Positions 8,217-60,987 of a DNA stretch of 64,000 nt are shown here, one piece after another (the first letter of the stretch is position 1; each line of letters opens with the position of its first letter). The translations under genes were made by a program, and so were the position numbers. The stretch comes from Candidatus Omnitrophota bacterium. Its GTDB lineage: Bacteria > Omnitrophota > Gorgyraeia > Duberdicusellales > 4484-171. The stretch covers positions 208,703-272,702 of the forward strand of contig PMCS01000029.1 in assembly GCA_003154195.1 (NCBI GenBank), in the 5' to 3' direction. The notes beneath the pieces were generated by a model, which was given only the letters and a program-made list of their open reading frames with translations, ran no database searches and was not told where the DNA came from.

Positions 8217-8234
8217 GTAATAAAATATTAATGA

Positions 8235-10725: not shown

Positions 10726-10885
10726 ACTGGGATAACAAATTTAAAAATTAACCTATATGCTTCCGGGCATCTATATACCGATAAAATCTCTTGCGACATT
10801 TTATCGGAATGCCTCGGAAGTCAATTCGACTACAGCCTCAATCTGCGCCCCTAGCGGGGCTTGATTTCGGCTGAGTCTCATTGAA

Positions 10886-11260: not shown

Positions 11261-11821
11261 AAAAATTTCACCACAGAGGGTATAGAAAAGTACCGAGGGA
11301 TGAATGATGATGGATGAAGGAAGATAGAAAACCAAAAAACTTTTGTCCTCAGATTACGCAGATTCTACAGATTGATTAACCGGATTTTTCTTTTAATATT
11401 ATCCCGATTTATATTTTTCTAAGAAATCTGTGAAATTAATAGTTTTGTAAATATAGGCTTGTTATTTTTCCTGTTTTTGTTATAATTCCCAGCTGTATTT
11501 ATATAGAGGCTAAGTTCCATCAACCAAGAGGCATTCAAATACTATGGCCATGCATATCTTCGTTTTTATCATCGTTATTTTACCATTAGTTTTGTGTTGG
11601 GTGCAAATGCTTTTAGATAAGTTTATGTAGGAATTCTTTCTTTCCCTCCGTTTAGAAAAACGTGGTAAATCGACTAAGCGTTTTTTCTTCATCTTCGATT
11701 AGGAAAAACGTGGCTTCATTGCCTGAAATCTGAGGTCGCGCTCTAAGCGCTTCCACGATTTCAGATAATTCGGCTACCAATTTTTGCTGCGTCTTAGACT
11801 TGCAAAAATTGAAGCCTCACT

Positions 11822-12145
11822 GGCGGGATAGCTCAGTCTGGTAGAGTCCCGCCTGCGCTTCGCTCGGCGGGATTAATTCAACTAAACCCGGAGTACCGGG
11901 TAAGTTTCATTGAACAAACGGCTCATACCCGCTGAAACCGATTTACCAATCGGTTTCAGAAGGGAGTATGAGGGAAGAATTCCCTCATGTAGTAGGGGTG
12001 ACAGCGACGAGCGAAGCGAGGAAGCGCCAGAGGGGCGAAGCCCCTATGGGGAACGAAGCGAAGCGAGTGACGCGAGGCTGGCGAGCCTCATAAATAAAAT
12101 ATACAGGCGAGTCCCGCCTCAAGGCGGGATCAAATCCAGTTCCCG
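11822..12145 (+). pseudogene. Degenerate/fragmented copy of the tRNA-Met gene: 5' acceptor and D arm, an anticodon stem-loop segment and a T-arm-like 3' segment, separated by unrelated insertions
   Basis: 11822-11846 matches tRNA positions 1-25 exactly (ggcgggatagctcagtctggtagag). 11916-11932 matches the anticodon arm (aaacggctcataccc). 12123-12145 resembles the T arm and 3' end (ggcgggatcaaatccagttcccg) but with a broken acceptor. The inserts carry dispersed repeat modules. Confidence 0.4.
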
Positions 12146-16215: not shown

Positions 16216-17637
16216 ATGAAAAATATCTACATTGCTGTATTTTTAATTTTTTCCCAAGCGCTCGCCTTGCCTTGGGCGGTTGCGCGGGATGAAGGCGAAA
16301 ATCATAAAAATAATGAAGGCCGGCTGATTACGCTTGCCGACGGCATTAAGATAGTTTCGCAAGACAGCCGGTTGATTAAAATAGCCTTTGCCGATACACA
16401 GGCGGCGATGCAGGACCTGCGCGTCGCGTTTTCTCCCCTTCTCCCCCAGGTCACTTCTTTGGTAACTGAAACCTGGCTGGTCAATCAGCCGGCGGCAAAA
16501 TTCGGCCTTTTGCGCGTCGAAAGTGCCGACCGGCAATCTCTCTCGGCCGGGGTAGCGGTATATCAAACGCTGTTTGATTTCGGCAAAAGCATTGCCGATT
16601 ATAAAAGTGCGGGAGAGATGTTGAGCGGCCGGCAGGCTAATTTAGAAATCGTGCGCCGGGCCGCGGTGCTGGAATTTATCCTGGTATACTTTGACTCTTT
16701 GGAAGCGGAAAAAATGGTTGTGGTGGCGCGAAACCAGGTTAAAAGCTTAACGGCGTTCGCCGCCGATATCGAGAATCTATATGAAGCCGGCACGGCGGTA
16801 AAAAATGATTTGCTCCCCGCGCGGGTCAGGCTTTCCGACGCGAAAGTAAAACTAATCAGCGCGCGAAATAACCGCGCGATTTACGCGGCAAGGTTTAATA
16901 ATATTCTTGCTTTGCCGCTGGGAGAAAAGGTCAGGATTCGCGATAGCCGGGTTGAGGTTGCTTATCTTCCCGGCCGCGATGAACTTTGGGAAACTGCGGC
17001 CGCAAAACGGCCGGAAATTTCTTTTATTGCCGCCCAGAAGAAAGCGTCGGCATTTCGGGAGAAATCCTTCCGGGCGCAGAATCGCCCTAAGGTCTTTGCC
17101 GAAGGCGGCTATTCCTACGCGCAAAATGAATACCAGGTGCATCAAGATAATGCTTACGTCAATGTCGGGGTAAAGTTTAATGTTTTTGACGGGCAGTTAT
17201 CCCAGGCGCAGGTTTCGAAAGAGAAGTATTTCCAGAAGCAAACCGATTTGCAAAGGGAAAAACTGGCAGAGGATATTAAATTCGAGATCGAAAGCAGTTT
17301 GTTAAATTTTAATAATGCCCTGGAAAAAACTAAAGTTAGCCGCGAGGCGCTGTCTCAGGCTCAGGAAAATGTGCGGGTTACCCGCATAAAATACAATTCC
17401 GGCAGCGCTACGACGACGGAAGTCCTGGAAGCGGTAACCCTGCAGACGTTAGCCCAGACGAATTATTATGATTCTCAGTACGATTTAAAACGCAATTACG
17501 CGCGGTTGATGTACGCGGCGGGGATGGATTTATCTTTAATTAATGAGACTTGGCCGAAATCAAGCCCGAAGTCCGTCAATTCGTTAAACGAATTGACGAG
17601 ACCTCGCCATCTATGGGATGGCGGGGGCGCAGATTGA
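16216..17637 (+). CDS. TolC-like outer membrane efflux protein (OEP family)
   Basis: 473 aa. Signal peptide and two OEP-type coiled repeats. Lies upstream of the HlyD/EmrB genes. The last ~25 codons are supplied by the 88-bp dispersed repeat, so the true C-terminus may be altered. Confidence 0.75.
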   Translation: MKNIYIAVFLIFSQALALPWAVARDEGENHKNNEGRLITLADGIKIVSQDSRLIKIAFADTQAAMQDLRVAFSPLLPQVTSLVTETWLVNQPAAKFGLLRVESADRQSLSAGVAVYQTLFDFGKSIADYKSAGEMLSGRQANLEIVRRAAVLEFILVYFDSLEAEKMVVVARNQVKSLTAFAADIENLYEAGTAVKNDLLPARVRLSDAKVKLISARNNRAIYAARFNNILALPLGEKVRIRDSRVEVAYLPGRDELWETAAAKRPEISFIAAQKKASAFREKSFRAQNRPKVFAEGGYSYAQNEYQVHQDNAYVNVGVKFNVFDGQLSQAQVSKEKYFQKQTDLQREKLAEDIKFEIESSLLNFNNALEKTKVSREALSQAQENVRVTRIKYNSGSATTTEVLEAVTLQTLAQTNYYDSQYDLKRNYARLMYAAGMDLSLINETWPKSSPKSVNSLNELTRPRHLWDGGGAD

Positions 17638-17646
17638 GGCGGTAGT
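17559..17646. repeat. 88-bp dispersed repeat, copy A (inverted partner at 28025-28112)
   Basis: Near-identical reverse complement of 28025-28112 by direct comparison. Contains the perfect palindrome gtcaattcgttaaacgaattgac. Flanked by other repeat modules (taatgagact at 17541; gggatagtcgaat at 17705). Confidence 0.8.
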
Positions 17647-17823
17647 CCAAATTAATTTAGGTTCGGGACATCCTGTACCTAAATATAGTTATTTTAGGGC
17701 AACGGGATAGTCGAATTTCCCGCCTTTGGCGGGATCCCGCTTCCTTAATATAACTATCCAGGGAGGCGGTGAACCCCTGAAGCGTTAGCGAAGGGGTTCG
17801 AGGCTAACTAAAGGAGAAAGACT

Positions 17824-18822
17824 ATGGAAGCGCCCAACCATAAAAAGACTAAACTATTGATTATTCTGGTCGCAGCCGCCGCGGTTGGCGGGTTTTTGGC
17901 CGGCGCGGCAATCATGCGGGCTTCCCGGTTTTTGGCTACGGATGACGCCTATATCGACGGCCGTACCCACATCGTAGCGTTTCGCGTTTCCGGTACCGTA
18001 AAGACGGTTTATGTCCAGGATAACCAGGCCGTCAAGCAGGGAGATTTGCTGGTTGAGCTCGATCCGGCGGATTATGAGTTAAAAGTCGGCGATGCCGCCG
18101 CTGCCCTGGACGCGGAGAAAGCCAAATTCATTGACGCGGGTGCCGGCATCAACGCTGCGGCGGCTAATTTTGATATCCAGGAAATAAATCTTAAGCAGGC
18201 TGTACTCGATAAAAACAGAGCGGAGGCTCTTTTCAAGGAAGGCGTGATTGCCGCGGAAAGGCATGAGAAAGTCCTTACCGCTTACAGCATGGCCGCGGCG
18301 CAGGTAACGGCGGCCGGCGAACAGTCAGCCCGGGCAAAGGCGACGGAAGATATCGAAAAATCTTTAGTAAAACAGAAGGGGGCGGCTCTGGGAACAGCGC
18401 GGTTAAATTTAAGTTATACTAAAATATACGCGCCTTGCGATGGTTATGTCACCAGAAAATCTGTGGAAATAGGAAATCGGGCGGCCGAGGGGCAGCCGTT
18501 GATGGCGGTGATTGCCCTGAACGATATCTGGATAACCGCTAATTATAAAGAAACGCAGTTAAGAAAAGTGAAGCCGGGCCAGAGCGTATCGATTAAGGTC
18601 GACGCTTATCCCTCTAAGCATTTTACGGGAAGGGTCGAAAGTATCATGGCCGGCACCGGCGCGGCCTTTTCGTTATTCCCGCCGGAAAACGCCCTGGGCA
18701 ATTATGTCAAAGTCGTGCAGAGGGTTCCGGTGAAAATAACGATCGATAAAAATAACGGCCAGAACCGTATCCTGCGTATCGGCATGTCCTGCGTAACGGT
18801 CATCAATACCAAAGATGAGTAA
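17824..18822 (+). CDS. HlyD/EmrA-family membrane fusion protein
   Basis: 332 aa. N-terminal TM, coiled-coil and lipoyl-like segments. YVTRKSVEIGN... is typical of EmrA periplasmic adaptors. Confidence 0.8.
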   Translation: MEAPNHKKTKLLIILVAAAAVGGFLAGAAIMRASRFLATDDAYIDGRTHIVAFRVSGTVKTVYVQDNQAVKQGDLLVELDPADYELKVGDAAAALDAEKAKFIDAGAGINAAAANFDIQEINLKQAVLDKNRAEALFKEGVIAAERHEKVLTAYSMAAAQVTAAGEQSARAKATEDIEKSLVKQKGAALGTARLNLSYTKIYAPCDGYVTRKSVEIGNRAAEGQPLMAVIALNDIWITANYKETQLRKVKPGQSVSIKVDAYPSKHFTGRVESIMAGTGAAFSLFPPENALGNYVKVVQRVPVKITIDKNNGQNRILRIGMSCVTVINTKDE

Positions 18823-20335
18823 ATGGATTGTTGCCCTATCGGTTATTCTGCCTACACTGATCGAAGTCATTGATACTTCGGTCGTTAATGTTTCTTTAGA
18901 TCACATCCGCGGCAGCCTTTCCGCCGGCCTCGATGAATCTACCTGGACGATTACCGCTTATCTTGTTTCCAACGCCATCATCATCCCTATTACCGGCTGG
19001 CTCAGCCGCGTCTTCGGCCGCAAACGGTATCTGATTTTTTCCGTAGCTCTGTTTACCGCCAGTTCCTTTATGTGCGGAGCGTCTACTACTCTGGGCATGC
19101 TGATTTTTTTTCGGATCCTGCAGGGTATCGGCGGCGGCGCGCTGCAGCCGATTTCCCAGTCAATTCTCCTGGAGGCTTTTCCGGTAGCGGAGCACGGGAT
19201 GGCCATGGCGATTTTCGGCAGCGGCGTGATGTTCGGGCCGATTATCGGGCCGATGCTGGGCGGCTGGATTACCGACAATTGGTCGTGGAACTGGATCTTT
19301 TATATTAATATCCCCATCGGCATTCTGTCGATTGTCATGATCGGCTTGTTTATCCACGACCCGGTTTATTTAAAACGCACCAAGCAAAAAATCGATTTCC
19401 GGGGGTTAGGGCTGCTTGTGGTTGGCCTGGGTGCTTTGCAGGTTGTGCTCGATAAGGGCCAGCGGGAAGATTGGTTCTCTTCGGGTTTAATCGTAAGGTT
19501 GTCGCTTGTCGCGGCGGCCTGCCTCATCGCTTTTATTATCGTGGAGCTTCGTTCTCCCGAGCCGGTGGTCAAACTGCGGTTATTTAAAAATATTTCTTTC
19601 GCCGCCGGCAACCTCGTCCAATTTTTCGCCTTTTTTGTTTTATTCGGCAGCATCGTGCTTGTTCCTATATATTTACAGCAGTTAATGGGCTATACCGCTT
19701 ATCTGGCCGGGTTAGCCCTTGCTCCCGGCGGTATTGCCACTCTTTTTTCGATGCCCCTAGTCGGGATACTGGTCGCTAAATATAATCCCAAAGGGCTTAT
19801 GGTTTTTGGCATTATCGTTACGGCGTATTCGATGCTGATTATGTCTTCCTTCAGCTTGCAGACCGATTTAGACGCGATTTTATGGTCGCGTATCGTAATG
19901 GGTTTCGGTTTAAGTTTTGTGTTTATCCCTATGGTCACCATGACTCTTTCCGGCGTCCCTAAGGAGGAGATGGGTTATGCCACCGCCATTTTTAATCTTC
20001 TGCGTAATCTCGGCGGCAGTTTCGGCGTAGCGTTTATTACCACGATAGTTGCCCGGCGCGCCCAATTCCACCAGGCGCGTTTCGCGGAAAATTTAACCCC
20101 TTTTCATCTGCCCTATCGGGCCGCCGGCCAATTTGCCGGCAGGGTATTGCAATCAAAAGGAGTTTCGCCGGCCGCGGCCGACGGCATTATTTACCAGCGC
20201 TTGATTAGAGAATCGAACATGATGGCGTTTCGCGATACATTTTTTTTCTCCGCCGTAATTATGATTTCGGTTCTGCTCCTGGTGTTTTTTCTTAAGCGGC
20301 CCAAAGGCGCGCCGGCCGTTGGAGCGATGCATTAG
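18815..20335 (+). CDS. MFS drug:H+ antiporter, DHA2/EmrB-QacA family (14 TM)
   Basis: 506 aa. MFS motif GRKRYLIFSVALF, many TMs. Start overlaps the stop of the preceding membrane fusion gene. Confidence 0.85.
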   Translation: MSKWIVALSVILPTLIEVIDTSVVNVSLDHIRGSLSAGLDESTWTITAYLVSNAIIIPITGWLSRVFGRKRYLIFSVALFTASSFMCGASTTLGMLIFFRILQGIGGGALQPISQSILLEAFPVAEHGMAMAIFGSGVMFGPIIGPMLGGWITDNWSWNWIFYINIPIGILSIVMIGLFIHDPVYLKRTKQKIDFRGLGLLVVGLGALQVVLDKGQREDWFSSGLIVRLSLVAAACLIAFIIVELRSPEPVVKLRLFKNISFAAGNLVQFFAFFVLFGSIVLVPIYLQQLMGYTAYLAGLALAPGGIATLFSMPLVGILVAKYNPKGLMVFGIIVTAYSMLIMSSFSLQTDLDAILWSRIVMGFGLSFVFIPMVTMTLSGVPKEEMGYATAIFNLLRNLGGSFGVAFITTIVARRAQFHQARFAENLTPFHLPYRAAGQFAGRVLQSKGVSPAAADGIIYQRLIRESNMMAFRDTFFFSAVIMISVLLLVFFLKRPKGAPAVGAMH

Positions 20336-20397
20336 TTTCAAAATACCATCAAGAATTTTATGAAAAACAGGATGGAAACATGAAGAAATATCAAAGC

Positions 20398-20565
20398 AAC
20401 CACAGAGGTCTCAGAGAAGAACATGCCTCTCTGGGTTCTCTGAATGATAAAGAGTATTTTCTTCAATGGGTAACCGGGAGAATAATTTAAGAGTACACAG
20501 AGGAAGAAAGAGAAAAAACCGGTAATTTTTTATATTTTAATGATTTCTCTGGAGTCTCTGTGGTT
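20398..20565. mobile_element. MITE-like / structured element with ~21-bp terminal inverted repeats (copy 1)
   Basis: Termini aaccacagaggtctcagagaa ... ttctctggagtctctgtggtt, reverse complements with 2 mismatches. Internal second inverted pair around cacagagg. Sits about 35 nt upstream of the RBS of the 20605 gene. Confidence 0.5.
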
Positions 20566-20604
20566 AACTTTTGACAGAACGATTTTTAAATTAAGGAGGG
20601 CGCT

Positions 20605-21258
20605 ATGAAAATGAAATTGTTTATCGTTTTTTGTTTCGCGCTGCTGATTGTTGTTTGCGTTGCCGTTGCTTACGCGCAAAAGGCCAAATCAATCCGGCTT
20701 CTGCCGCCGCGGCTGGATAACGCTAAACCTTTGATGCAGTCGTTAAAGGAGAGGAAGTCGGGCCGCGAATTTAGTTCCCAGGAATTGCCTTTAGCGGTGT
20801 TGTCGGATATACTCTGGGCGGCTAACGGAATAAACCGGCCGGATTCGGGGCGCCGGACCGCGCCTTCCGCCATCAACATGCAGGAGATAGATATTTATGC
20901 CGCTAAGGCCGACGGGCTTTATTTATTCGACGCTAAAGAAAACGCGCTAAACTTAATTATAGCCCAGGATTTACGGGCTTTGACCGGCAGGCAGCCGTTC
21001 GCCGCAGACGCTCCCGTCAATCTTATTTATGTCGCCGACCTGTCTAAAATGAGTAAACTATCTGAAGAAGACCGAAACTTTTACTCCGCCACCGATACCG
21101 GCTTTATCAGCGAGAATGTTTACCTGTATTGCGCCGGCGCGGGATTGGTTACGGTAGTGCGCGGCGCGGTTGACCGGCCGGCTTTGGCGAAAGCGATGGG
21201 GTTACGGACCGACCAGAAGATAATTCTTGCCCAAACCGTGGGTTATCCCAAGCAGTAG
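20605..21258 (+). CDS. Nitroreductase-family / SagB-type dehydrogenase domain protein with signal peptide
   Basis: 217 aa. Signal peptide. Nitroreductase-like LSDILWAANGINRP ... IDIYAA...GLYLFD. Confidence 0.55.
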   Translation: MKMKLFIVFCFALLIVVCVAVAYAQKAKSIRLLPPRLDNAKPLMQSLKERKSGREFSSQELPLAVLSDILWAANGINRPDSGRRTAPSAINMQEIDIYAAKADGLYLFDAKENALNLIIAQDLRALTGRQPFAADAPVNLIYVADLSKMSKLSEEDRNFYSATDTGFISENVYLYCAGAGLVTVVRGAVDRPALAKAMGLRTDQKIILAQTVGYPKQ

Positions 21259-21718
21259 AAAGAAGAAGAAAGCGGCGAGACTGGGATAGGAAAATATCCG
21301 CGTACCGTCTATCGGATTTACTTTTTTAAAAATTGTGATAGGCTGAGACGGTGCGGTAAACTTGTGAGCGCGTAAGCGTGTGAGGAAATACCTTAAAAGG
21401 GAAGATAGGGGAAAGAGGGGAATTAAAATGAAAACACCGTTAAAAGTTTCCGGCGCGATTTTTTTGCTGGTATCCCTTTTGCATATTCTACGGCTCATTT
21501 TTAAAATTCCGGTGGCCGCGGCAGGTTATACCGTGCCGATGTTTTTCAGCGTTATCGGGGCGTTGGCTGCGCTGGTTCTGGCGGTATGGATGTTCAACTC
21601 GGCCCGGCAAGGTTCGAGCGCAGTTGAACAATGAAACTAAGCCCTGCCGCGTACGGCAGACCAAGTTTCATCGGCTCGAAGGGGTTGTTAAAAAATAACT
21701 ATACCGGTAAAATAATTT

Positions 21719-22819
21719 ATGACGGACAAAGCAAAAATCCTGGTAGTTGACGACGAGCCTTTAAATATAAAACTTCTGGAGGCGAACCTTTTGTCTCAGG
21801 GTTACGATGTTGTCGCCGCATCCAGCGGCCAAGATGCTTTAAAGATTCTTGAAGAAAACGATATTGATTTAGTCCTGCTCGATGTGATGATGCCGGGCCT
21901 TGACGGCATCGAGGTAGCCAAACGTATCCGCGCCAACGAAAAAACCAGCCTCCTGCCCATAGTGCTGGTTACTTCCTTAAGAGATATTTCCGACCGCATC
22001 AAAGGCATCGAAGCCGGAAGCGACGATTTTATTTCCAAGCCCTTCGATAAAGAAGAGTTACTTGCCCGGGTAAAATCTCTGTTGCGCATAAAATATCTGC
22101 ATGAGCAATTGCGGGAAAATTATCGCAAGCTTAAATCGCTGGAAGAAATGAAAGACAGCCTTACCCATATGATTGTCCACGATTTGAATAATCCCCTGGC
22201 GATTATTTTTCTCAAATGCCAGATTTTAGCGGACAGCCTGGGAGAAAAAATTACCGCTTCACAAAAAGAAGATATCAGCGATATCCTCGTTTCGGCGCGG
22301 GAATTAAAAAGGATGATCGGCAATATCCTTGATATCAATAAAATGGAAGAGGGGCGCTTGGCGTTGCGCCGGGAAAATTTTTCCTTAACGGATTTGGCCG
22401 CCGAAGTTGCCGAAGAAATGAAAATTACGGCCGGCCCGGCAGGACAATCTTTATCGGCGCAAGCGGCTTCCGCGATGCCGGAAATGTTTGCCGATAAAGA
22501 TCTGATCCGCCGGGCGATCATCAATCTGGTGAGCAACGCTTTAAAATTCACGCCCGAAGGGGGCCATATCGATATAATCTCTTCCTTTGACCCCGCCTCT
22601 AAAAAATTACGCGTCGAGGTTAAAGACAACGGAATCGGCATACCACAGGAATATCTCCAGAAAATTTTCGATAAATTTTTTCAGATAAACCATGATCAAA
22701 TAAGAGCCGGCCGAGGGCTGGGTTTGACTTTTTGCAGACTGGTCGTGGAGGCGCATGGCGGCTCTATCTGGGTGGAAAGCCGGGAGGGAAAAGGCAGCGC
22801 TTTTATCTTTACCATATAA
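21719..22819 (+). CDS. Hybrid response regulator / histidine kinase (REC-HisKA-HATPase)
   Basis: 366 aa. REC KILVVDDEPLN ... LDVMMPGLDG, H-box THMIVHDLNNPL, G-box GRGLGLTFCRLVVEAHGG. Confidence 0.8.
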   Translation: MTDKAKILVVDDEPLNIKLLEANLLSQGYDVVAASSGQDALKILEENDIDLVLLDVMMPGLDGIEVAKRIRANEKTSLLPIVLVTSLRDISDRIKGIEAGSDDFISKPFDKEELLARVKSLLRIKYLHEQLRENYRKLKSLEEMKDSLTHMIVHDLNNPLAIIFLKCQILADSLGEKITASQKEDISDILVSARELKRMIGNILDINKMEEGRLALRRENFSLTDLAAEVAEEMKITAGPAGQSLSAQAASAMPEMFADKDLIRRAIINLVSNALKFTPEGGHIDIISSFDPASKKLRVEVKDNGIGIPQEYLQKIFDKFFQINHDQIRAGRGLGLTFCRLVVEAHGGSIWVESREGKGSAFIFTI

Positions 22820-22846
22820 AAAAATTCGTCGCTACCGTAAAGGAAT

Positions 22847-25846
22847 ATGTTTAAATTTCTATCATTGCCTGAAAGAACCCCTCCCATGCCCTCCGGCCGG
22901 TTTACCCGGCGTTATTTCCAGATTGTTTTCATCATGGCTTCCGCCGTGATCATTTCTTCCTGTACGGTTATTGTTTATTACGCTTGCCGTCGCGTTTATC
23001 AGGAAAGAGATGTTTTATTCAAACAATATTTGCGCGATAACAAAAAATATTCCAACAGTTACCTGGAAAGCATGGCCAATAATATTAATTATCTGGCCGA
23101 TACTTTATCGGAAGGCGATTCCGGCAATAAGCCGGCGGCGGATGGCGCGGATACGGATATAAGGAAACGCCTGGAAAATATTTTCGCCCCGGTTTTAAAA
23201 GCAGAAGGCGACCGCATCGCGCAAATATTCTGCAGCGATAGAAACAGCCGCAAGGTTTTCACTTTTGAAAGCAAAGATAACGAATTAAAGGTTTCCGATG
23301 ACAACGGCTCATCTGCCGGTTTAAGCTTTAATAAAAAAGTAATCCTGTCCCCCGGCGTCGTTTATATGTCCCCGGTTTTTTTAGACCGGTCCGCGGCCAT
23401 TCCGGTAAAACCTTACGTTCCGGTGGTTGAATTTTCCCGGGGCCTTTTTGACGCCGCCGGAAAACCTACCGGAGTGATCGGTATAAGATTCAGCGTCAAA
23501 AGTATTATCCGTGTCTTTCAGTCCATCAGGAGTATGCCTGACGCCGAAGTATTTATCGCCGATGCCAAAGGGTATTATTTACGTAACGGCGACAATCAAA
23601 AAGAATGGGGTGCGCCGCGCGATTTAGGTACCCGGTGGAATGTTAAGAAAGATTTCCCTTTCTATTACCGGGAAATTCTCAACCAGGAAAGCGGATTTAT
23701 TTATGACCGCGATAAAAAACAATATATATATTTTTCCAGTTTCTCTCCTTATTCCGCTTCTCAAGATAAGTGGATCGTCGCTGCTGTGGTGGCGCGGAAT
23801 AAATTTTTTACCCCTTTGTATAAAACTGCCGGCATAACAACTCTTGGTTTTTTGGCCCTGTTTTTTCTTATCTTCGCGTTGCTGCGCCACGCCGAAAACC
23901 AGATTTTAAAATACGCCGGGGAGCTGGAAGAGCAAAAAAACACGTTACAGAACAGCTACGTATTCTTACAAAGGATCATCGACAGCATGCCTAATCCCGT
24001 TTTTTACCAGGATTCTTGCGGGCAGTGCCTTGGCTGTAATATCGCTTTTCAGGATTATTTCGGGATCAAAAAAGAAACAATCATCGGCCGCCGCGTTTAT
24101 GATATCCTGCCGGTAGAAGATCCGCAAGGATTTTGCGAACAGGACGCGGCACTTTTACTGGAAGACAATAAGCGGTCGGCCGGCGCGGCTAAAGTCCGGC
24201 GCGCCGACAAAAATTTTCGCGACGTGATTTTTTATAAAGCAAGTTATCGGCAGGGCCATGGCGAGCGCAACGGCGTAGTCAGCGTCATGATCGATGTCAC
24301 CGAAAGGAATATCCTGGAGCAAAATTTAGCGCAGGCTAAGGAATCTGCCGAATCGGCCAGCCGCGCCAAAAGCGCGTTTCTGGCGGCGATGTCCCATGAA
24401 TTACGTACGCCCTTAAACGCGATTATCGGTTTTTCCGAGTTGTTGGCCGGCGAAAGTTTCGGCAAATTACTCGATAAACAAAAAGAATATATCAATGATA
24501 TTTGGAGCAGCGGCAAACATTTGCTGGCCTTGATCAACGATATCCTTGATCTTTCCAAGATCGAAGCGGGAAAATTAGAGCTGCATCTGGATGAGATTGA
24601 TTTAAAAAATATTTTGGAATCAAGTTTTGTGATGATCAAAGAAAAAGCGTATCGCCAGGGCATAGCCCTTATTCTGGACGTTGCCGACGGCATCGCAAAA
24701 GTTGAAGCCGACGAGCAGAAAATAAAACAGGTCATGTACAATCTTCTTTCCAACGCCGTAAAGTTTACCCCCCAGGGAGGAAAAATCGGCGTGGTCGCGG
24801 CAAAGTCCAGCGAAAACAATATCCTTGTTTCGGTATGGGATACGGGGATCGGCATCGAAGACAAAGACAAAGACAAGATTTTTAAGGAATTCATGCAGAT
24901 CGACAATACCCTTACCCGCCAATTCGCCGGGACCGGCCTGGGCCTGGCGCTGGTTAAAAAAATAATCGAGCTTCACGGCGGGAAAATTTGGTTCGAAAGC
25001 GCGGGGAAGAACCAGGGCGTTAAATTCAGTTTTACTATTCCGCAGATAAAATTGGACCGGCTTAGTTACGCCGGAATCGCAGGAAAAATCGATGCCGTTA
25101 AACTCAAGCCCAGCCCTTTGACGGTTTTTATGCTCCACTGGGATAATTATGACCGGTTTGCCGGCAGCGCCGACATAACAAAAATCAATAGCGCGTTTTT
25201 CGGCCTTAAGAAAGATTTCAGCGAAATTGCCCAACTCGAAGATTTTATCATTGATAACAACAATGCGATTATCGCGCTCGCCTCCCTTGATAAGAATGCC
25301 GCGCCGAAAGCGGCGAAAGCTTTTCTTCAGGAGGTAAAAAAAGCCATTTTTGATTTCGACAACAGCTTTGAGGCCGAATTCTCTTACGGATTTTCCACTT
25401 ACCCCGATGACGGGAAAAATTTTGATGAGCTGGCGCGTAAGGCAAAAGAAAATTATCTTAACGAGCGAGGCTTAAGATTGCAGAAAAGGATAATGATCAT
25501 CGATGACGAACCGGCGGTGTTAAACGCTACAAAAAATACTCTGAAGCAGTTCGGCTATAGTAACTTTGACAGCGCCTATAGCGGCGCGGACGCCCTGGGA
25601 AAAATAGAGATAAACCATCCGGAGTTGATCATCCTTGATATACAAATGCCCGGGATGAGCGGTTATGAATTTATCGGAAGGATTAAAGAGAATACCCATA
25701 CGCAGGCAATCCCGATTTTAATTATTTCCGGTTATCACGTGGAAATGGCGCGAATCAGCGAGTACATAAAAAATAAAGCTATTCCGATTCTGGGTAAACC
25801 TTTCGAAGCCAACCAGGTGGCGAAGCTGGTGTGGTATTTGTTGTAA
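22847..25846 (+). CDS. Large hybrid sensor histidine kinase (TM, Cache/PAS-like sensor, HisKA, HATPase, C-terminal REC)
   Basis: 999 aa. H-box MSHELRTPLNAIIGFSELL, G-box GTGLGLALVKKIIELHGG, C-terminal REC IMIIDDEPAV ... LDIQMPGMSG. Confidence 0.8.
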   Translation: MFKFLSLPERTPPMPSGRFTRRYFQIVFIMASAVIISSCTVIVYYACRRVYQERDVLFKQYLRDNKKYSNSYLESMANNINYLADTLSEGDSGNKPAADGADTDIRKRLENIFAPVLKAEGDRIAQIFCSDRNSRKVFTFESKDNELKVSDDNGSSAGLSFNKKVILSPGVVYMSPVFLDRSAAIPVKPYVPVVEFSRGLFDAAGKPTGVIGIRFSVKSIIRVFQSIRSMPDAEVFIADAKGYYLRNGDNQKEWGAPRDLGTRWNVKKDFPFYYREILNQESGFIYDRDKKQYIYFSSFSPYSASQDKWIVAAVVARNKFFTPLYKTAGITTLGFLALFFLIFALLRHAENQILKYAGELEEQKNTLQNSYVFLQRIIDSMPNPVFYQDSCGQCLGCNIAFQDYFGIKKETIIGRRVYDILPVEDPQGFCEQDAALLLEDNKRSAGAAKVRRADKNFRDVIFYKASYRQGHGERNGVVSVMIDVTERNILEQNLAQAKESAESASRAKSAFLAAMSHELRTPLNAIIGFSELLAGESFGKLLDKQKEYINDIWSSGKHLLALINDILDLSKIEAGKLELHLDEIDLKNILESSFVMIKEKAYRQGIALILDVADGIAKVEADEQKIKQVMYNLLSNAVKFTPQGGKIGVVAAKSSENNILVSVWDTGIGIEDKDKDKIFKEFMQIDNTLTRQFAGTGLGLALVKKIIELHGGKIWFESAGKNQGVKFSFTIPQIKLDRLSYAGIAGKIDAVKLKPSPLTVFMLHWDNYDRFAGSADITKINSAFFGLKKDFSEIAQLEDFIIDNNNAIIALASLDKNAAPKAAKAFLQEVKKAIFDFDNSFEAEFSYGFSTYPDDGKNFDELARKAKENYLNERGLRLQKRIMIIDDEPAVLNATKNTLKQFGYSNFDSAYSGADALGKIEINHPELIILDIQMPGMSGYEFIGRIKENTHTQAIPILIISGYHVEMARISEYIKNKAIPILGKPFEANQVAKLVWYLL

Positions 25847-25852
25847 AAGAAT

Positions 25853-26257
25853 ATGAAAACATGCCCGGTTTGTTTTAAAGAATTTAGCGGTAACGCCGGT
25901 ATCTGCGATGAATGCTTTATTGTAACCAGAAGAAAGAAGCTAAATGAGTTGTCGAAACGTTTCACGTTGTTGCTTTTAATCGCCGCCTTGATTTACGCCA
26001 ACAGCAAAGACATGGAGGGGGCAGGCAATTATATCCGGCGCCGGTCAAAACGAGCGGCGGCTGATTTTAGTAAATTATGGGATGCCTTGAAAGAAATGCC
26101 CCGGGATTTCCTGCGGGGCGTTAATTCACGGGACAGTTTTACCGGGGAGCCGGGTTATCTTAAGGGCCGGGGAGAACGCCCGCGCAATATATCTCCTGGC
26201 GATTTGGGAGGGGGCGGAATCGAAAATTTTACCCGGCAAGTGTATAGTGGTAATTAA
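25853..26257 (+). CDS. Hypothetical protein with N-terminal zinc-ribbon-like CxxC...CxxC
   Basis: 134 aa. CPVCFKEFSGNAGICDEC followed by a TM-like segment. Confidence 0.35.
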   Translation: MKTCPVCFKEFSGNAGICDECFIVTRRKKLNELSKRFTLLLLIAALIYANSKDMEGAGNYIRRRSKRAAADFSKLWDALKEMPRDFLRGVNSRDSFTGEPGYLKGRGERPRNISPGDLGGGGIENFTRQVYSGN

Positions 26258-26283
26258 GGTAGCGTCAAATAGAATATGAAGGC

Positions 26284-26569
26284 AACCACAGAGTTCACAG
26301 AGGGGAAATTAAACCTCTGTGTTCTCGAAGAAATGGACAAAGGCGATAAAAACACCATTGTCCATAGATATTTCTCAAAATTACTCTTAAAAAAATAAAA
26401 GATAACAGAGTTGCCAAATCATCTGACAAATTTTTATAATGTTGCTGGTTTTTGGTTTGCGTGTCCCGACTACACCAAAGTATTATTTTTTGGTCTGTTT
26501 TAAGAGTGCACAGAGGGGGGATACCATAATTCATTGATATTTAATAATTTCTCTGTGACCTCTGTGGTT
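26284..26569. mobile_element. MITE-like / structured element with ~19-bp terminal inverted repeats (copy 2 of the 20398-20565 family)
   Basis: Termini aaccacagagttcacagag ... ctctgtgacctctgtggtt, plus a nested inner inverted pair acctctgtgttctc / gagtgcacagaggg. Ends about 35 nt upstream of the RBS of the cupin gene. Confidence 0.5.
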
Positions 26570-26607
26570 TATTTTTACAAAATGATTAGATAAGGGAGGG
26601 AAGAGAT

Positions 26608-26877
26608 ATGAAGATTGAAGTAAAAAAATTGTCGGTTCAGGAAATCGAAAAACTGGGGATAAAAGATTGGCCGATCTGGGAAAAAGAAGCAAGTACTTTT
26701 GATTGGCATTATGACGAAAAAGAGATGTGTTATTTCTTGGAAGGCGATGTAGAAGTATCAACCGAAAGCGGCGAAAAAGTTAAATGTGGTAAAGGCGATT
26801 TCGTAACTTTTCCCCGGGGGTTGGCATGCAGATGGAACATTAAAAAGGCAGTCCGCAAGCATTATAAATTTGAATAA
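26608..26877 (+). CDS. Cupin-domain protein (DUF861 / cupin_3-like)
   Basis: 89 aa. Strong RBS gggaggg. Cupin beta-strands CYFLEGDVEV ... GDFVTFPRG. Confidence 0.6.
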   Translation: MKIEVKKLSVQEIEKLGIKDWPIWEKEASTFDWHYDEKEMCYFLEGDVEVSTESGEKVKCGKGDFVTFPRGLACRWNIKKAVRKHYKFE

Positions 26878-27082
26878 TTTTTATTTTTGCGGAGCGCAAG
26901 CATAGTTGCGAAAGCTTCGTGGAAATATCCTGCCCGGAGAGCGTGAAATTTTCACGGTATCCAGGCGCATCGGGATAGTCCAACTAAAGGCATTCATCAC
27001 GCCTTCGGTTTATAAATGCCTGGTGCACTGCCAAATTAATTTTTAATGGTATCATTTGCTAAAAAAGGAGGAACGCTGAAAA

Positions 27083-27898
27083 ATGTATGCGACTTACTGG
27101 AATTTAAAAAAGATGCCTTTTGAGAATACGCCTGATCCACACTTTTTGTATCGTTCCCCGCAGCATGAGGAAGCATTGGCACGAATGTTATACGCTATTC
27201 GATACCGTAAGGGAGGGGGCTTAGTTACAGGTGTCTTTGGTTGCGGAAAGACCATTCTGGTGCAGGCAATTCTTGATGAGATAAAACAAGATCGATATAA
27301 AACCGCTATTGTCAATAATCCTCAATTAGACTACGCAGAACTTTTAAGGGCAATTGTACGTAGCCTCAAGGCAATTGAGTTACCCCAGAAAAAAACCGAA
27401 CTTTCAGCAGATTATCTTTTGGAGGTTCTTAACCAAATACTCCTGAATAATATGCGTGATGGAAAAGAGACGGTAATTATTATTGATGAAGCGCATATCA
27501 TCCAGGATGAGCGTGTCTTTGAAGAATTGAGACTGCTTTTAAACTTTCAACTTAGAGAACGCTTCTTGCTCACCCTTCTTCTTTTAGGACAGCCGGAACT
27601 AAAACAGAAGATTGAAGATAATAAACAATTAGAACAACGTATCGCCGTTAAAGCCAATCTTCAGCCCTTAGATTTAGAAAATACCAAAAGATATATCGAC
27701 CATCGTTTAGCAGTAGCGGGGCAGACAGAACAGATCTTTAGTGATGGAGCGATAGGGTTAATCCAAGAAAATTCTGGAGGTATTCCCAGACGCATAAACA
27801 ATCTTTGTGATATTTGTTTGTTAAATGGTTCTGATAAAAAGGTAAGTCTAATTGATGAGGAGATAGTAACGCAGGTGGCTGAATACGAGTCTTCCTAG
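27083..27898 (+). CDS. ExeA/GspA/MshM-like AAA ATPase (AAA_16/22 family), copy 1
   Basis: 271 aa. Walker A GVFGCGKT, Walker B IIIDEAH. N-terminus YWNLKKMPFENTPDP is typical of ExeA-like proteins. Confidence 0.7.
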   Translation: MYATYWNLKKMPFENTPDPHFLYRSPQHEEALARMLYAIRYRKGGGLVTGVFGCGKTILVQAILDEIKQDRYKTAIVNNPQLDYAELLRAIVRSLKAIELPQKKTELSADYLLEVLNQILLNNMRDGKETVIIIDEAHIIQDERVFEELRLLLNFQLRERFLLTLLLLGQPELKQKIEDNKQLEQRIAVKANLQPLDLENTKRYIDHRLAVAGQTEQIFSDGAIGLIQENSGGIPRRINNLCDICLLNGSDKKVSLIDEEIVTQVAEYESS

Positions 27899-28024
27899 GG
27901 GACGCGGATGAGATGCCGGGTTATTATCTTAACTAATGAGACTTCGATTTTTCCAAGTCCCGGAGGGACGCTGGGAAAATCGGTAGTCGAATTATCTGTC
28001 GGCTAAAGAGGGAAGGTTAATTCC

Positions 28025-28112
28025 ACTACCGCCTCAATCTGCGCCCCCGCCATCCCATAGATGGCGAGGTCTCGTCAATTCGTTTAACGAATTGACGGAC
28101 TTCGGGCTTGAT
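28025..28112. repeat. 88-bp dispersed repeat, copy B (inverted relative to 17559-17646), embedded in a larger repeat-module patch at 27900-28165
   Basis: Reverse complement matches copy A except for 2 nt at one end. Flanked by the modules taatgagacttcg, ggtagtcgaat, cccggagtaccgggcaagtttcatt and cgaagtctcatt. Confidence 0.8.
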
Positions 28113-28208
28113 AATTCAACTAAGCCCGGAGTACCGGGCAAGTTTCATTACGGCGAAGTCTCATTAAAAATGTGTTGAGATATTTCAATTATGTTATAAA
28201 ATGATAAA

Positions 28209-44944: not shown

Positions 44945-44949
44945 GGGAG

Positions 44950-59340: not shown

Positions 59341-60727
59341 AAAAAGTTTCATAAACGATTTTTTTCTCATCGGCGTTATTTTAGCGTTAACTTACCTCAT
59401 TTTTACCTTTATCGGTTTATCCCCCCATACTTTTTTTATTCTCGGCGGCCTGGCTATTTTTTTTATCGCTTTTTTCCGGACAGATTTTGCTCTCGTAGTT
59501 TTGATTTTTTCCATGCTCCTTTCCCCGGAATTCGGCGTAGGCCACGCCGGCGGAAGAGAAGTGATGGTGCGGCTCGACGATATCTTTTTATTTATTGTTT
59601 TTTTGGGATGGATGGCAAAAATGGCGGTTAGTAAAGAGCTGGGGTTGCTGCGAATTTCATCCCTTAATCTGCCAATCTTAGCGTATATCGCCGTTTGCAT
59701 AATCTCTTCTATTCTGGGGATTTTAAGAGGGGAGGTGACATTCAAGGGTAGTATTTTTTATATTTTAAAATATGTGGAATATTTTCTGGTATTTTTTATG
59801 GTAACCAATAATATACGCGATATGGAGCAGATAAAAAAATTCATTTTTTATATGATTTTTGTCTGCTTCCTTATAAGTCTCTATGCCTGGTTTTCGCATT
59901 CTTCAGGGGCCGAGCGCGTCAGCGCTCCTTTCGAAGGCAAATCCGGCGAGCCGAATACCCTGGGGGGATATTTGCTTTTACTGATAATGGTTTGTATAGG
60001 ATTATTATTAAATTTAGAGCAGAGAAATTATAAGATTTTTCTCTTTCTGGTCATTTTTTTTGCTTTTCCCGCTTTTTTGTTCACCCTTTCTCGCGGTTCG
60101 TGGCTGGGATTTATTCTCGGTTATCCGGTATTAATATTTCTTACAAAAAAAGGCAAGACGGTTCTCTTAGGTATTTTTATTATACTTCTGTTTTTATCCT
60201 CCGTAGTGTTTCCCAAATATGTATATAAAAGAGTCCAGGAGACTTTTTCTAAACGGACAGAGCGTACAATCCTGGGGAGGCGTTTCAATATCGATCCGTC
60301 TGCGGCGGCGCGTATTGATACCTGGAGAGAAGGCATAAAATTATGGAGTAAATCACCTTTCTGGGGGCATGGTGTGGGGATAGCCGGGTCCGTTGTCGAT
60401 AATGAGTATACCCGTATACTTATCGAGGTCGGCTTGATAGGGTTTGCCGCTTTTTTCTGGATTATATTAACGCTATTTAAGCATTCTTTCATAAATTTAC
60501 GCTTGCTTGAATATGATAATTTTTCCAATGGAATCATTGCCGGATTTAGTGCAGGGTTAGTGGGTCTTTTGGGGCATTGTTTAAGCGCGGGAACATTCAT
60601 CATCATAAGGATTATGGAGCCGTTTTGGTTTTTTGCGGCGATAGTAATGCTCCTTCCGGAATTAATTAATGAGACTTCGCCGAGCGCAAGCCCGGAGGGC
60701 GCAGCAGGAGGCGGTAGTGAAACTTAG
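59333..60727 (+). CDS. O-antigen ligase / Wzy-like polymerase family membrane protein
   Basis: About 12 TMs with a large loop (Wzy_C-like). ORF-track frame opens with GTG at 59312 inside the repeat; the ATG at 59333 is more plausible. Confidence 0.6.
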   Translation: MVKKSFINDFFLIGVILALTYLIFTFIGLSPHTFFILGGLAIFFIAFFRTDFALVVLIFSMLLSPEFGVGHAGGREVMVRLDDIFLFIVFLGWMAKMAVSKELGLLRISSLNLPILAYIAVCIISSILGILRGEVTFKGSIFYILKYVEYFLVFFMVTNNIRDMEQIKKFIFYMIFVCFLISLYAWFSHSSGAERVSAPFEGKSGEPNTLGGYLLLLIMVCIGLLLNLEQRNYKIFLFLVIFFAFPAFLFTLSRGSWLGFILGYPVLIFLTKKGKTVLLGIFIILLFLSSVVFPKYVYKRVQETFSKRTERTILGRRFNIDPSAAARIDTWREGIKLWSKSPFWGHGVGIAGSVVDNEYTRILIEVGLIGFAAFFWIILTLFKHSFINLRLLEYDNFSNGIIAGFSAGLVGLLGHCLSAGTFIIIRIMEPFWFFAAIVMLLPELINETSPSASPEGAAGGGSET

Positions 60728-60759
60728 ACATTTGTAAGCCGAAGGCGAAACAAATGTCT
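60726..60759 (+). terminator. Hairpin immediately after the Wzy-like gene (agacatttgt ... acaaatgtct), inside a repeat-module patch
   Basis: 10-bp perfect stem. No T-run follows. Confidence 0.25.
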
Positions 60760-60987
60760 GTAGTTGAACTATCCCCGCAAGGGGATAGTCGAATCAATGA
60801 AACTAAGTCCCGCTGTATTCGGTGGACCAAGTTTCATTGCCCGGAGCGAAGCGGAGGGGTTTGAGACTTCGCCGTAAAAAAGTCAGGCCGCTGGAAGCGG
60901 GCGTCAAGATTTTTCCCCGGACTTCATTAGGGTATAGGCAGTTATCCGGACTTTTATATTTTACTATACTGCAAGAAGTTATCCATT

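Follow-up and report, generated by a model that had tools for sequence, protein, structure and literature searches.

The 88-nt inverted repeat that brackets a 10.4-kb gene block in the Omnitrophota DNA analysed here (a stretch of 64,000 nucleotides, hereafter the window) probably does not delimit a mobile or invertible segment, but arises incidentally from a lineage-specific family of small palindromes present in high copy between genes. The family itself is best read as REP/BIME- or MITE-like. The features of the window that are concerned are collected in Table 1.

The inverted arms and their shared module

Repeat search of the window and direct string comparison reveal that the two arms are identical at 88 of 88 nt, fully (100%) complementary and 10378 nt apart, and that the identity ends abruptly at both sides. 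The inverted pair noticed in a previous sequence-only reading is therefore real, and the mismatch of two terminal nucleotides reported there is absent. An exact match of this length within 64 kb cannot be chance. The palindrome read in both arms was recovered as a near-palindrome, GTCAATTCGTTAAACGAATTGAC at 17575–17597 with its complement in arm B, and the flanking modules said to be shared correspond to TAATGAGACTT, present at 17541, 27934 and 28166 (minus strand), and also at 60667 and 10883 (minus strand). Profile matches for the genes between the arms (HlyD, MFS, nitroreductase, two hybrid kinases, cupin and AAA_22 ATPase) agree with the efflux pump and other functions that had been assigned to them.

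Each arm is the inner part of one repeat unit of approximately 58 nt, and the arms represent 88-nt non-coding pieces of two otherwise different mosaic elements. Their identity stems from an apical module common to the two units, whose backbones are nearly the same; the module contains two hairpins, GTCAATTCG..CGAATTGAC and CGCCATC-TATG-GGATGGCG. The 69-nt core comprising this module and the base of helix 3 is unchanged in arm B (28042–28110, minus strand) and at a third locus (contigs L139–L143), where the surrounding backbone is another one: its helix 2, next to the core, is unlike that of the window copies, and a hand count from the aligned rows gives differences at about 11 of 45 backbone positions. 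Unit D has the backbone of arm A and lacks the module. The perfect 13-bp terminal inverted repeat of element B, TAATGAGACTTCG/CGAAGTCTCATTA, exists because two units, B2 and B1, are opposed to each other; the fold of this doublet has a z-score of -8.9.

Table 1. Repeat units, composite elements and associated genes in the window, with positions counted from its first letter
Feature	Position	Strand	Basis
Repeat unit D: arm A backbone (AATC/GATT helix 2), plain GCTA loop replacing the module	10823..10883	-	R1 75 bits
Repeat unit immediately upstream of the decayed tRNA-Met copy	11767..11822	-	R1 38.5 bits
Mini-unit within the decayed tRNA-Met copy	11875..11912	-	sequence and covariance-model reading
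TolC-like (OEP) ORF, last 32 codons encoded by element A	16216..17637	+	profile search, homologue comparison
Repeat unit A: TAATGAGACTT, three-helix hairpin with apical module, then GTAGT	17541..17652	+	R1 61 bits, E 4e-13
Long-form composite element A (~265 nt), apparently inserted in the tolC 3' end	17541..17807	+	fold z = -7.3
Arm A, 88-nt inverted repeat	17559..17646	+	88/88 match to reverse complement of 28025–28112
69-nt core: helix-3 base and apical two-hairpin module	17561..17629	+	exact match at third locus
Remnant of the native tolC tail (LKEKDYGSAQP*)	17808..17843	+	comparison with relatives
hlyD (17824–18822) and MFS (18815–20335) genes, inside the bracketed segment	17824..20335	+	relatives share gene order
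Palindromic mini-element of the same kind as 60796..60838	21630..21671	.	81% identical to 60795–60837
Repeat unit B2, tail-to-tail with B1	27934..27993	+	R1 52 bits
Repeat unit B1: apical module and nested mini-unit	28019..28166	-	sequence reading, fold
Arm B, 88-nt inverted repeat	28025..28112	-	88/88 match to arm A
Mini-unit nested in B1, TAATGAAACTT-GCCCGG-TACT-CCGGGC-TTAGTTGAATTA	28113..28150	-	95% identical to 11874–11911
Two tandem units (60667–60724, 60725–60770), in-frame fusion to the end of the Wzy_C gene	60667..60770	+	R1 76.6 and 20 bits
Palindromic mini-element AATGAAACTAAG..CCAAGTTTCATT	60796..60838	.	repeat search

A family of covarying palindromic repeats

The basic unit of about 58 nt consists of TAATGAGACTT, a hairpin of three stacked helices set apart by conserved internal loops, and GTAGTCGAATTA. 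The covariance model built for it (R1) yields at least 10 matches at E < 0.05 in the window, and together with two palindromic mini-elements the model matches amount to about 13 repeat elements in the approximately 84 kb of genome examined. The conserved flank motifs occur 10 and 6 times, against 3.5 and 1.0 expected, and none of 100 shuffles reaches either count. Analysis of 18 distinct units shows that 94.7% of cells are paired and that compensatory changes are present in 9 of 13 pairs, giving a covariation score of 0.64 against 0.05–0.15 in slid controls (reached by none of 500 shuffles); covariation is visible already in the small seed alignment. All 18 units contain TAG, which directly adjoins the stem on its 3' side and is preceded by G in 12. 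The hairpin loops are mostly C-GNA-G triloops (GAA, GTA, GGA) and GCGAAGC, both of them classic and unusually stable DNA mini-hairpins. The host genome is an Omnitrophota MAG from Stordalen Mire, that of an uncultured peat bacterium. Further units are found in related peat-metagenome contigs (L125, L126, L129, L130, L134, L139–L143, L167). The minimal view taken in the sequence-only reading, that of recently active dispersed repeats, is thus upheld by the multiple copies, the covarying hairpin and the identical core at the third locus; copies do stand at many unrelated sites, which essentially corresponds to the REP-like family that it had named as the outcome contradicting a structural role for the pair.

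Units are arranged singly, as tail-to-tail doublets, in tandem, nested, or within composites of approximately 200–270 nt that have a conserved 3' domain. Their flanks, TAATGAGACTTC and TAATTCGACTAC, match at 9–10 of 12 positions and are hence imperfect inverted repeats. Many units have TA at both ends, but these dinucleotides are part of the conserved consensus; the 13-nt direct repeat on both sides of element C is the start of another unit, and no clean target-site duplication is definable for the units. The positions of the units relative to genes are precise: the unit's own TAA is the stop codon at three loci and adjoins the native TGA at one, and at two loci the fusion is in frame, as in the Wzy_C gene, which is extended by 21 codons through the fused units. 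The interrupted tRNA-Met copy stands beside an intact tRNA-Met. No member of the family occurs in 43 kb from two other Omnitrophota. Rfam models recognize tRNA only in the whole window at the gathering threshold, and noise only at E <= 10 in the element-rich stretches. An integron attC site was considered and rejected, as the unit has GTCGAAT and not GTTRRRY, its 5' flank ATGAGAC misfits RYYYAAC, and there is no integrase in the window and 10 kb on each side.

Element A in the tolC-hlyD-MFS operon

Besides unit A and other hairpins, element A contains three hairpins with the stems TCCCGCC/GGCGGGA, CCGCTTCC..GGGAGGCGG and CCCC..GGGG. The tolC and hlyD genes of three other Omnitrophota share 17–20 nt, whereas those of the window lie 186 nt apart; judged from this comparison, element A is therefore an insertion at the tolC-hlyD junction, in the 3' end of tolC. 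The remnant of the native tail still runs 20 nt into hlyD, whose start codon is at 17824, an arrangement shared with the relatives, and the native LIY[DE]T codons of tolC sit where the TTAATTAATGAGACT of the element now stands. The last 25 or so codons of the TolC-like ORF had been attributed to arm A; the tail proves to be 32 codons long (LINETWPKSS...GGGAD*), about 26 of them from the 88-nt arm, and about 60 homologues are without it. Filled and empty sites are seen at deep divergence only, at this junction with respect to three relatives, and in the interrupted tRNA-Met copy with respect to the intact one beside it; within the population no filled/empty polymorphism was seen, and all contigs are identical.

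Transcription of element A as part of the tolC-hlyD-MFS operon is unavoidable unless the element has a promoter, and this bears on the possibility that the units are primarily functional RNA, i.e., hairpins acting in cis in 3' UTRs and intercistronic regions, maintained by selection and not selfish DNA. They could then stabilize the upstream mRNA, provide processing sites or uncouple translation, and the 88-nt identity would be a shared, selected variant. We consider this unlikely. Every composite with the 3' domain (element A in the window, L146, L129, L140, L139b, L167) runs in the direction of its flanking genes and begins at the upstream gene's stop codon, as expected of such an RNA, whereas the short units are about equally sense and antisense (the D, B1 and E units being antisense). 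The stems covary strongly and the predicted folds are very stable, but copies are also nested, truncated, located in a dead tRNA copy and in a coding region, and the C-GNA-G loops are typical of DNA and not of RNA hairpins. On the TAATGAGACTT strand G-U pairs outnumber A-C mismatches by 22 to 5 (11 to 5 without the terminal pair), which would also suit an RNA, but the units had been aligned by fitting them to the model in this very orientation. Finally, the sense strand of element A has neither a U-tract terminator nor a convincing promoter, and no Rfam match was obtained even at E <= 10.

Orientation and coherence of the bracketed segment

The sequence-only reading had suggested that the arms might mediate inversion of the intervening segment or delimit a composite element, and neither proposal is borne out. 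Arm A cuts through a single efflux operon, leaving tolC outside the bracketed segment and hlyD-MFS within it. tolC occurs on 15 contigs, and hlyD is the next gene in 8 of 8 among the matches listed; AAA_22 occurs on 24 contigs, and 8 of 10 among the matches listed reach the next gene, which is a response regulator in all 8. Both flanks are aligned in the reference arrangement at 13 loci for arm A and 10 loci for arm B, all from consensus assemblies. Contigs spanning either arm stem from several samples and assemblers, show one orientation and carry an identical element sequence, and in consensus assemblies the orientation of the 10.4-kb segment is fixed. GC skew is positive throughout, both arms included, and does not flip; there is no step in composition or skew at the arms. 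No transposase, integrase or recombinase was detected between the arms (Pfam, 10 ORFs), in the rest of the window or in 10 kb on each side.

A perfect inverted identity of 88 bp, as present here, suffices for homologous recombination, and the arms could be substrates of RecA-type recombination, with low-frequency inversion of the segment within the population as the result; hlyD-MFS would then be switched off, being parted from tolC and its promoter. Two short contigs (L159, L162) that break inside arm B would fit such a state and are also expected at any repeat. With the reference junctions found at all eight listed places for arm A and at the eight of ten that extend past arm B into the next gene, uninterrupted GC skew and gene orientation across the arms, no invertase in the window and 10 kb on each side, and an inverted state that would break an operon conserved in relatives, inversion has little probability. 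Lower still is that of a composite transposon or genomic island with the efflux, nitroreductase and kinase genes as its load, of which the arms would be the terminal repeats. Identical inverted sequences do bracket the gene block; however, no transposase or integrase was found in the window and 10 kb on each side, the arms are non-coding fragments of different mosaic elements, and neither composition nor skew steps at them. A cargo block was likewise rejected, arm A lying within the tolC-hlyD-MFS operon, with tolC outside and its partners inside, and this gene order being conserved in three other Omnitrophota, where the arms are missing. It is scarcely credible that the arm identity arose as an artefact of assembly, for example through collapse or copying of a repeat, for although the genome is a MAG and the short contigs around the third copy look repeat-tangled, both arms and their unique flanks recur base for base in independent ENA, NCBI, JGI and Logan assemblies from many samples.

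Comparison with known repeat systems

The family recalls the GTAG-tagged REPs (E. coli REP/BIME, Stenotrophomonas SMAG, Pseudomonas REP) as they are described in the available part of the survey of Di Nocera et al. 2013 (PMC3733652). Common features are short imperfect palindromes in high copy between unidirectional genes, mostly just 3' of coding regions, an unpaired GTAG adjoining the stem at one end of the palindrome, sub-families distinguished by complementary changes in the stem, with many G-T pairs, GA residues left unpaired in stems, complex loops with extra self-complementary inserts, and the arrangement of copies as singletons, as tail-to-tail dimers, in tandem groups and, occasionally, within genes. 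Omnitrophota are not among the hosts named in that part of the survey. On the other hand, the Omnitrophota unit is longer (58 nt, three helices), with two conserved 10–12-nt flanks and, in composites, a conserved 3' domain, and no RAYT gene was found in the window and 10 kb on each side. In canonical REPs, such as those of E. coli, GTAG by convention lies 5' of the stem. The GTAG on the GTAGTCGAATTA side of the Omnitrophota hairpin lies 3' of it, the mirror of this polarity, and RAYT-type recognition can therefore not simply be assumed.

With the REPIN-RAYT system (Bertels and Rainey 2011, PMC3116915) the family shares its lineage restriction and an inverted doublet with a short spacer that forms a larger hairpin (27934–28166, seen once); the halves of this doublet come from different sub-families, unlike in REPINs, and the majority of copies stand alone or in tandem arrays. 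The defining feature of that system, a single-copy RAYT (Y1 HUH) gene flanked by repeats, is missing from the window and 10 kb on each side. Similarly to MITEs (Neisseria Correia/NEMIS, Rickettsia RPE, enterobacterial RU/ERIC), the units are non-coding, non-autonomous and strongly folding with TA-bounded ends, insert at gene ends, extend ORFs in frame (tolC by 32 codons, wzy by 21) and are co-transcribed in operons, whereas their imperfect flanks, the lack of a clear target-site duplication and of a known parent IS, and their extreme nesting and modularity set them apart. PATEs derived from IS200/IS605, which transpose as single-stranded DNA, also have hairpin-centred ends and no obvious target duplication, and the possible insertion next to a sequence like the element's own end (tolC LIY[DE]T against TTAATTAATGAGACT) would fit them; no TnpA or TnpB is encoded nearby, and the likeness is an analogy of mechanism only.

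A proposed model for the spread of the units

On the preferred reading, a dispersed repeat family, the apical module has spread recently among the units by insertion or gene conversion. The units would be non-autonomous mobile DNA and depend for their copying on an enzyme whose gene lies elsewhere in the genome. By analogy with REP/REPIN and their RAYT transposase or with IS200/IS605 derivatives, we tentatively suggest that they may move as single-stranded DNA hairpins. Landing sites would be gene ends, where the TAA/TGA-rich 5' end of the unit supplies or adjoins the stop codon, and the inside of existing copies; once inserted, the units would be transcribed along with the neighbouring genes and form passive hairpins in the RNA of 3' UTRs and intercistronic regions.

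A more specific proposal, which we regard as doubtful, is that the family represents an undescribed site-specific, self-nesting hairpin element. Such an element would dock exactly on stop codons, choose targets resembling its own 5' end (as the tolC LIY[DE]T codons apparently replaced by TTAATTAATGAGACT), integrate into resident copies at their loops and junctions, bear a GTAG tag whose polarity is mirrored, and be mobilized as single-stranded DNA; the enzyme responsible would be one not so far associated with repeats of this type. The TCCCGCC/GGCGGGA module, identical to the acceptor stem of the adjacent tRNA, hints at a possible origin from tRNA-Met.

Implications

The family appears to be undescribed for Omnitrophota; no such family was found in Rfam or in the literature, queried for REP/MITE-type repeats in Omnitrophota and for the element sequences. 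It goes beyond a routine repeat family by its well-defined covarying architecture, by its precise docking on stop codons, and by the apparent insertion that breaks a translationally coupled gene pair and grafts a new C-terminal tail on an outer-membrane channel. It also calls for caution: a perfect inverted repeat around 10 kb of accessory-looking genes is no evidence of a transposon or a switch if its arms come from a dispersed family. Such families fragment MAG assemblies, can bias annotation and create spurious ORFs, for example P0121 and P0122. A covariance model of the family would be an aid to curating these genomes, and could lead to the mobilizing enzyme.

Structure of the repeat unit in the two arms

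When 28025-28112 is reverse-complemented, it matches 17559-17646 at every one of the 88 positions, and the identity ends abruptly on both sides; chance cannot be the source of an exact 88-mer match within 64 kb. The sequence-only reading had described near-identical inverted elements, and the match is confirmed and slightly better than claimed. The GTCAATTCGTTAAACGAATTGAC near-palindrome was found in both arms and the TAATGAGACTT modules were found as reported, and the TolC-like ORF (16216-17637) indeed takes its end from copy A, the left arm. The two arms sit within larger mosaics which, read outward from the arms, are unlike each other.

Alignment of the short copies gives a consensus unit of 58 nt. 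The 5' flank TAATGAGACTT is followed by helix 1 (CGCC/GGCG), an internal loop with tandem G-A, helix 2 with four positions that are free but complementary, a conserved internal loop AA/GCN and helix 3 (GCCC/GGGC), in most cases capped by a GAA, GTA or GGA triloop; GTAGTCGAATTA forms the 3' flank. The two flanks are imperfect inverted repeats of each other, and the motifs of the unit include GTAG and AATGAGACT. Among 18 distinct units, 94.7% of cells hold a standard pair, compensatory changes occur in 9 of 13 pairs, and the covariation score is 0.64 versus 0.05-0.15 in slid controls, a score reached by none of 500 shuffles. The stems vary while the unpaired AATGAGACTT, C-AA-G, C-GCN-G and TAGTCGAAT remain nearly invariant. 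C-GNA-G triloops and GCGAAGC, both hallmark ultra-stable DNA mini-hairpins, make up the great majority of the loops.

Region B (27934-28166) is a tail-to-tail doublet, with unit B2 on the plus strand and unit B1 on the minus strand (fold z = -8.9), and its apparent 13-bp terminal inverted repeat is explained by this arrangement. Unit B1 bears an apical module, and a 38-nt mini-unit with 95% identity to 11874-11911 is nested within the unit. Region A (17541-17807) is a long composite made of unit A, two further hairpins and a 3' domain of three hairpins (TCCCGCC-loop-GGCGGGA; CCGCTTCC-loop-GGGAGGCGG; TGAA-CCCC..GGGG). This domain is nearly unchanged at contig loci L146 (just past the window end), L129, L140, L139 and L167. 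Promoter and terminator scans of the sense strand of element A, the region A composite, revealed no convincing promoter or U-tract terminator; the sole notable match in the B region was a promoter-like site (10/12) lying immediately beyond the element and upstream of the response-regulator gene. Composites generally finish with the start of another unit. The junction GAGACTTCGCCG/TAATGAAACTTG occurs at two loci, 28137-28166 (minus strand) in the window and 596-625 in L139, and the ends of element C, the units following the Wzy_C gene, carry a perfect 13-nt direct repeat, TGAGACTTCGCCG (60669-60681 and about 60863-60877).

In both arms one and the same branched apical module takes the place of the helix 3 loop; it consists of a hairpin of about 17 bp centred on GTCAATTCG/CGAATTGAC and a second hairpin, CGCCATC-TATG-GGATGGCG. 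The arms are identical because both units carry this module and also agree in helix 2 (AATC/GATT) and in the 3' strand of helix 1. A search with peptides translated from the arms led, through one spurious ORF (P0121), to a third copy of the module; P0121 as query returned one further spurious ORF. The search is word-indexed and missed TolC when queried with TolC's own 25-residue tail, so that its negatives are weak. P0121 and P0122, both spurious, were called as ORFs across repeat units. The third copy, present in L139-L143 (five assemblies), shares an unchanged stretch of 69 nt (CAAGCCC...GGGGGCG) with the window copies, whereas a hand count gives roughly 11 differences over 45 positions in helix 2 and the 5' flank. 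By our arithmetic, 69 unchanged positions under uniform divergence at that level have a probability of the order of 10^-8; the module is therefore of more recent history than its backbones. Its spread was due either to insertion into apical loops or to gene conversion between units. Different expansions are found at the same apical position in other units (L129:71-150 and L129:7608-7693). The contigs of the third copy and L167 (577-770) have in common a gene end and two tandem units, and L139-L143 also match L167 at 5317-5430 (the 3' domain and about 110 nt downstream); either the gene is tandemly duplicated or the short contigs are repeat-mediated assembly paths.

Copies of the repeat and associated features
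Feature	Location	Description
R1 match	60667-60724	starts as in-frame fusion to Wzy_C (window C, 60667), +21 codons
R1 match	60725-60770	
R1 match	10823-10883	unit D; minus strand; short form of the arm backbone, a four-base loop replacing the 53-56 nt with the two hairpins of the 88-mer
R1 match	17541-17652	unit A; in-frame fusion to TolC (window A, 17541), +32 codons
R1 match	27934-27993	unit B2
R1 match	28019-28166	unit B1
R1 match	11767-11822	
R1 match	28113-28150	mini-unit
R1 match	11875-11912	mini-unit
Unit after ORF	L125 (1856), L129 (7537), L140 (577)	the unit's own TAA is the stop codon
Unit after ORF	L146 (13395)	unit adjoins the native TGA
TCCCGCC-loop-GGCGGGA module	17717-17735; 11846-11870; 12110-12130; L129 7690-7730; L140 870-890	
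9-nt tandem arrays	7101-7142; 35312-35353; L130 around 320-350 and 450-500	intergenic; unit GGCTAAACN or similar
CTTAGTGCCTTAGTGGTAAATCTTTTGGTTTT repeat	3149-3210; 8234-8265; 59255-59299	intergenic, both orientations; arm complementarity 78-94%
CCACAGAGG...CCTCTGTGG hairpin	20387-20440; 26273-26326; also about 11262-11300	first two 76% identical over 54 nt

Orientation of the segment between the arms

The sequence-only reading had proposed that the arms can mediate inversion of the intervening segment or mark a composite element. As regards inversion, all of the arm-spanning places shown have the reference arrangement. The tolC gene is present in 15 contigs, and each of the eight places shown runs on into hlyD; the AAA_22 gene is present in 24 contigs, and eight of the ten places shown reach the next gene, which is the response regulator in every case. 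The element sequences are the same in all contigs except for one base in one contig, and two short contigs stop inside arm B, as expected at a repeat. The GC skew is positive throughout 8-38 kb, without a switch at the arms. These reference junctions together with a continuous skew lead us to place the segment in its ancestral orientation, and the inverted orientation was not seen among the assembled contigs; rare inversion through the 88 bp of homology may take place below what assembled contigs reveal. The composite element is likewise not supported, as no ORF between the arms, or in the window and 10 kb on each side, matches a transposase, integrase or invertase, and the left arm lies within an operon whose gene order is conserved in relatives. 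It is the fallback of that reading, dispersed and recently active repeats, that the data support.

Insertion into tolC and docking at stop codons

By protein look-up, the window falls on a 202-kb scaffold of a metagenome-assembled genome from the Stordalen Mire peat/fen (GCA_003154645.1). The best-named homologues of the window TolC belong to Candidatus Omnitrophota, including Velamenicoccus archaeovorus, with at most 53% identity; the phylum was inferred from these names. The tolC and hlyD genes of three other Omnitrophota overlap by 17-20 nt, whereas 186 nt separate the two genes in the window. The C-terminus of about 60 TolC homologues has the form ...DL.LIY[DE]TM[KE] plus 8-12 charged residues; in the window protein, ...DLSLINET gives way to 27 unrelated residues for which the element codes. 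What is plausibly the native tail, LKEKDYGSAQP*, can still be read out of frame at 17808-17843, its end lying 20 nt inside hlyD exactly as in L165. Judged by these homologues, element A is an insertion into tolC. The split tolC-hlyD pair and the surviving native tail thus indicate that the element separated two translationally coupled genes and gave TolC a new C-terminus.

The first 15 nt of the element (TTAATTAATGAGACT, encoding LINET) stand exactly at the place of the native LIY[DE]T codons (17536-17553, compared with P0002-P0060), which points either to a target resembling the element end or to selection for residue-preserving insertions. From this correspondence the insertion looks homology-guided or strongly selected, and the native tolC sequence at the insertion point may have been TTAATTTATGA[GA]AC. 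Each sense-oriented unit that follows a long ORF starts at the stop codon of that ORF (see table). Short units occur in both orientations, those near the tRNA, D and B1 being antisense; the composites with the 3' domain are all co-oriented with the flanking genes.

Distribution of the repeat family

The covariance model R1, built from seven copies, gives 10 matches at E < 0.05 in the window, units A and B1 each yielding split matches. About 13 repeat elements are found in about 84 kb, counting the window, its 10-kb flanks and two palindromic mini-elements, and related contigs hold more units according to R1. A pattern scan of metagenome contigs returned five real distinct loci (L125, L126, L129 (=L132), L130 and L134) and eight chance matches; it is not exhaustive, having missed Ga0182017_10002603, which carries copy A, and its negatives are weak. 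The pattern used for genome contigs, GCGCAGNNNGAGGCKGTAGT, is too unspecific, with 118 chance matches in GC-rich genomes. No match was obtained in viral contigs with two patterns or in plasmids and phages by BLAST, Rfam yielded only the tRNA at the gathering threshold and nothing more at E <= 10, and the family is absent from the 43 kb examined of two other Omnitrophota genomes. A literature search combining the phylum with repeat terms produced no paper describing such repeats in Omnitrophota, and searches with sequence strings of the element gave unrelated primer matches only.

The tRNA-Met locus and other repeats

A decayed second copy of tRNA-Met(CAT) (11824-12160) lies just upstream of the intact gene (12208-12282). 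Of this copy, the 5' half, the anticodon arm and the T-loop/acceptor end survive as pieces of 100% identity, with a 68-nt insertion (mini-unit and TCCCGCC hairpin) between D-stem G24 and C25 and an insertion of about 190 nt in place of the variable loop and 5' T-stem. The pair is effectively a paralogous filled site next to an empty site for the repeat family. The TCCCGCC-loop-GGCGGGA module has, in permuted order, the acceptor-stem sequence of the neighbouring tRNA-Met (GGCGGGA...TCCCGCC), and the flank GTAGTCGAAT is loosely T-loop-like; such resemblance in sequence could hint at a tRNA-derived origin of the family, or be coincidence. Upstream of the tRNA region are three occurrences of AAAAACGTGG (11655, 11705, 12195), and its complement CCACGTTTTTT comes after the tRNA; behind the first of the three stand AATCGACTAAG and the downstream T-run of the tRNA, an arrangement that looks like the site of a lost tRNA copy.

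Other small repeats are listed in the table. In L130, 9-nt arrays stand on both sides of a repeat unit, and the CCACAGAGG...CCTCTGTGG hairpins, a third repeat type, lie in the spacers that follow the MFS gene and ORF 25853-26257. The window further holds a long same-strand cluster (35691-50547) comprising B12-binding and radical-SAM enzymes (at 35691, 39275, 44950, 45978 and 47871), PMT_2 glycosyltransferases, a TPR/UPF0489 protein and an ABC exporter, followed by a polysaccharide/O-antigen-type cluster (Wzz, Wzy_C, many methyl- and glycosyltransferases).

Discussion

We file these elements as a new family of REP/BIME/MITE-like palindromic repeats, the searches having found none described for Omnitrophota. 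With the non-autonomous REP/BIME- and MITE-type repeats catalogued by Di Nocera et al. (PMC3733652), they share a conserved unpaired tag next to a freely covarying stem, the division into sub-families, the occurrence as singletons, dimers or tandem arrays, copies that are nested, truncated or placed inside a dead tRNA gene and a coding region, and restriction to a lineage. Two points speak against simple membership: GTAG is located here 3' of the stem, with mirrored polarity, and no RAYT gene was found in the window and 10 kb on each side.

On account of the DNA mini-hairpin loops and the lack of a clear target duplication, we tentatively prefer a RAYT- or IS200/IS605-like single-stranded-DNA route, by which the units might move; this route is unproven. 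A role of the repeats at the RNA level is conceivable, given that G-U exceeds A-C mismatches (22 to 5, a strand test compromised by an alignment fitted to the model in that orientation), that the long forms are co-oriented with genes and that element A must be transcribed within its operon; as a side effect, at least, it is likely. In E. coli, intercistronic REPs stabilise the upstream mRNA, and we offer this as a comparison for such a side effect. Other candidates do not fit: the core motifs are unsuited to a hammerhead or other small ribozyme, the core sites to an integron attC (the integrase is also absent), and intrinsic terminators would require a T-run that is missing, while an outward extended -10 promoter in the conserved TTGATATAAT loop is better read as part of the hairpin and is not conserved in copy A.

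Docking at stop codons, self-nesting and the mirrored tag may point to a distinct mechanism of mobilisation.
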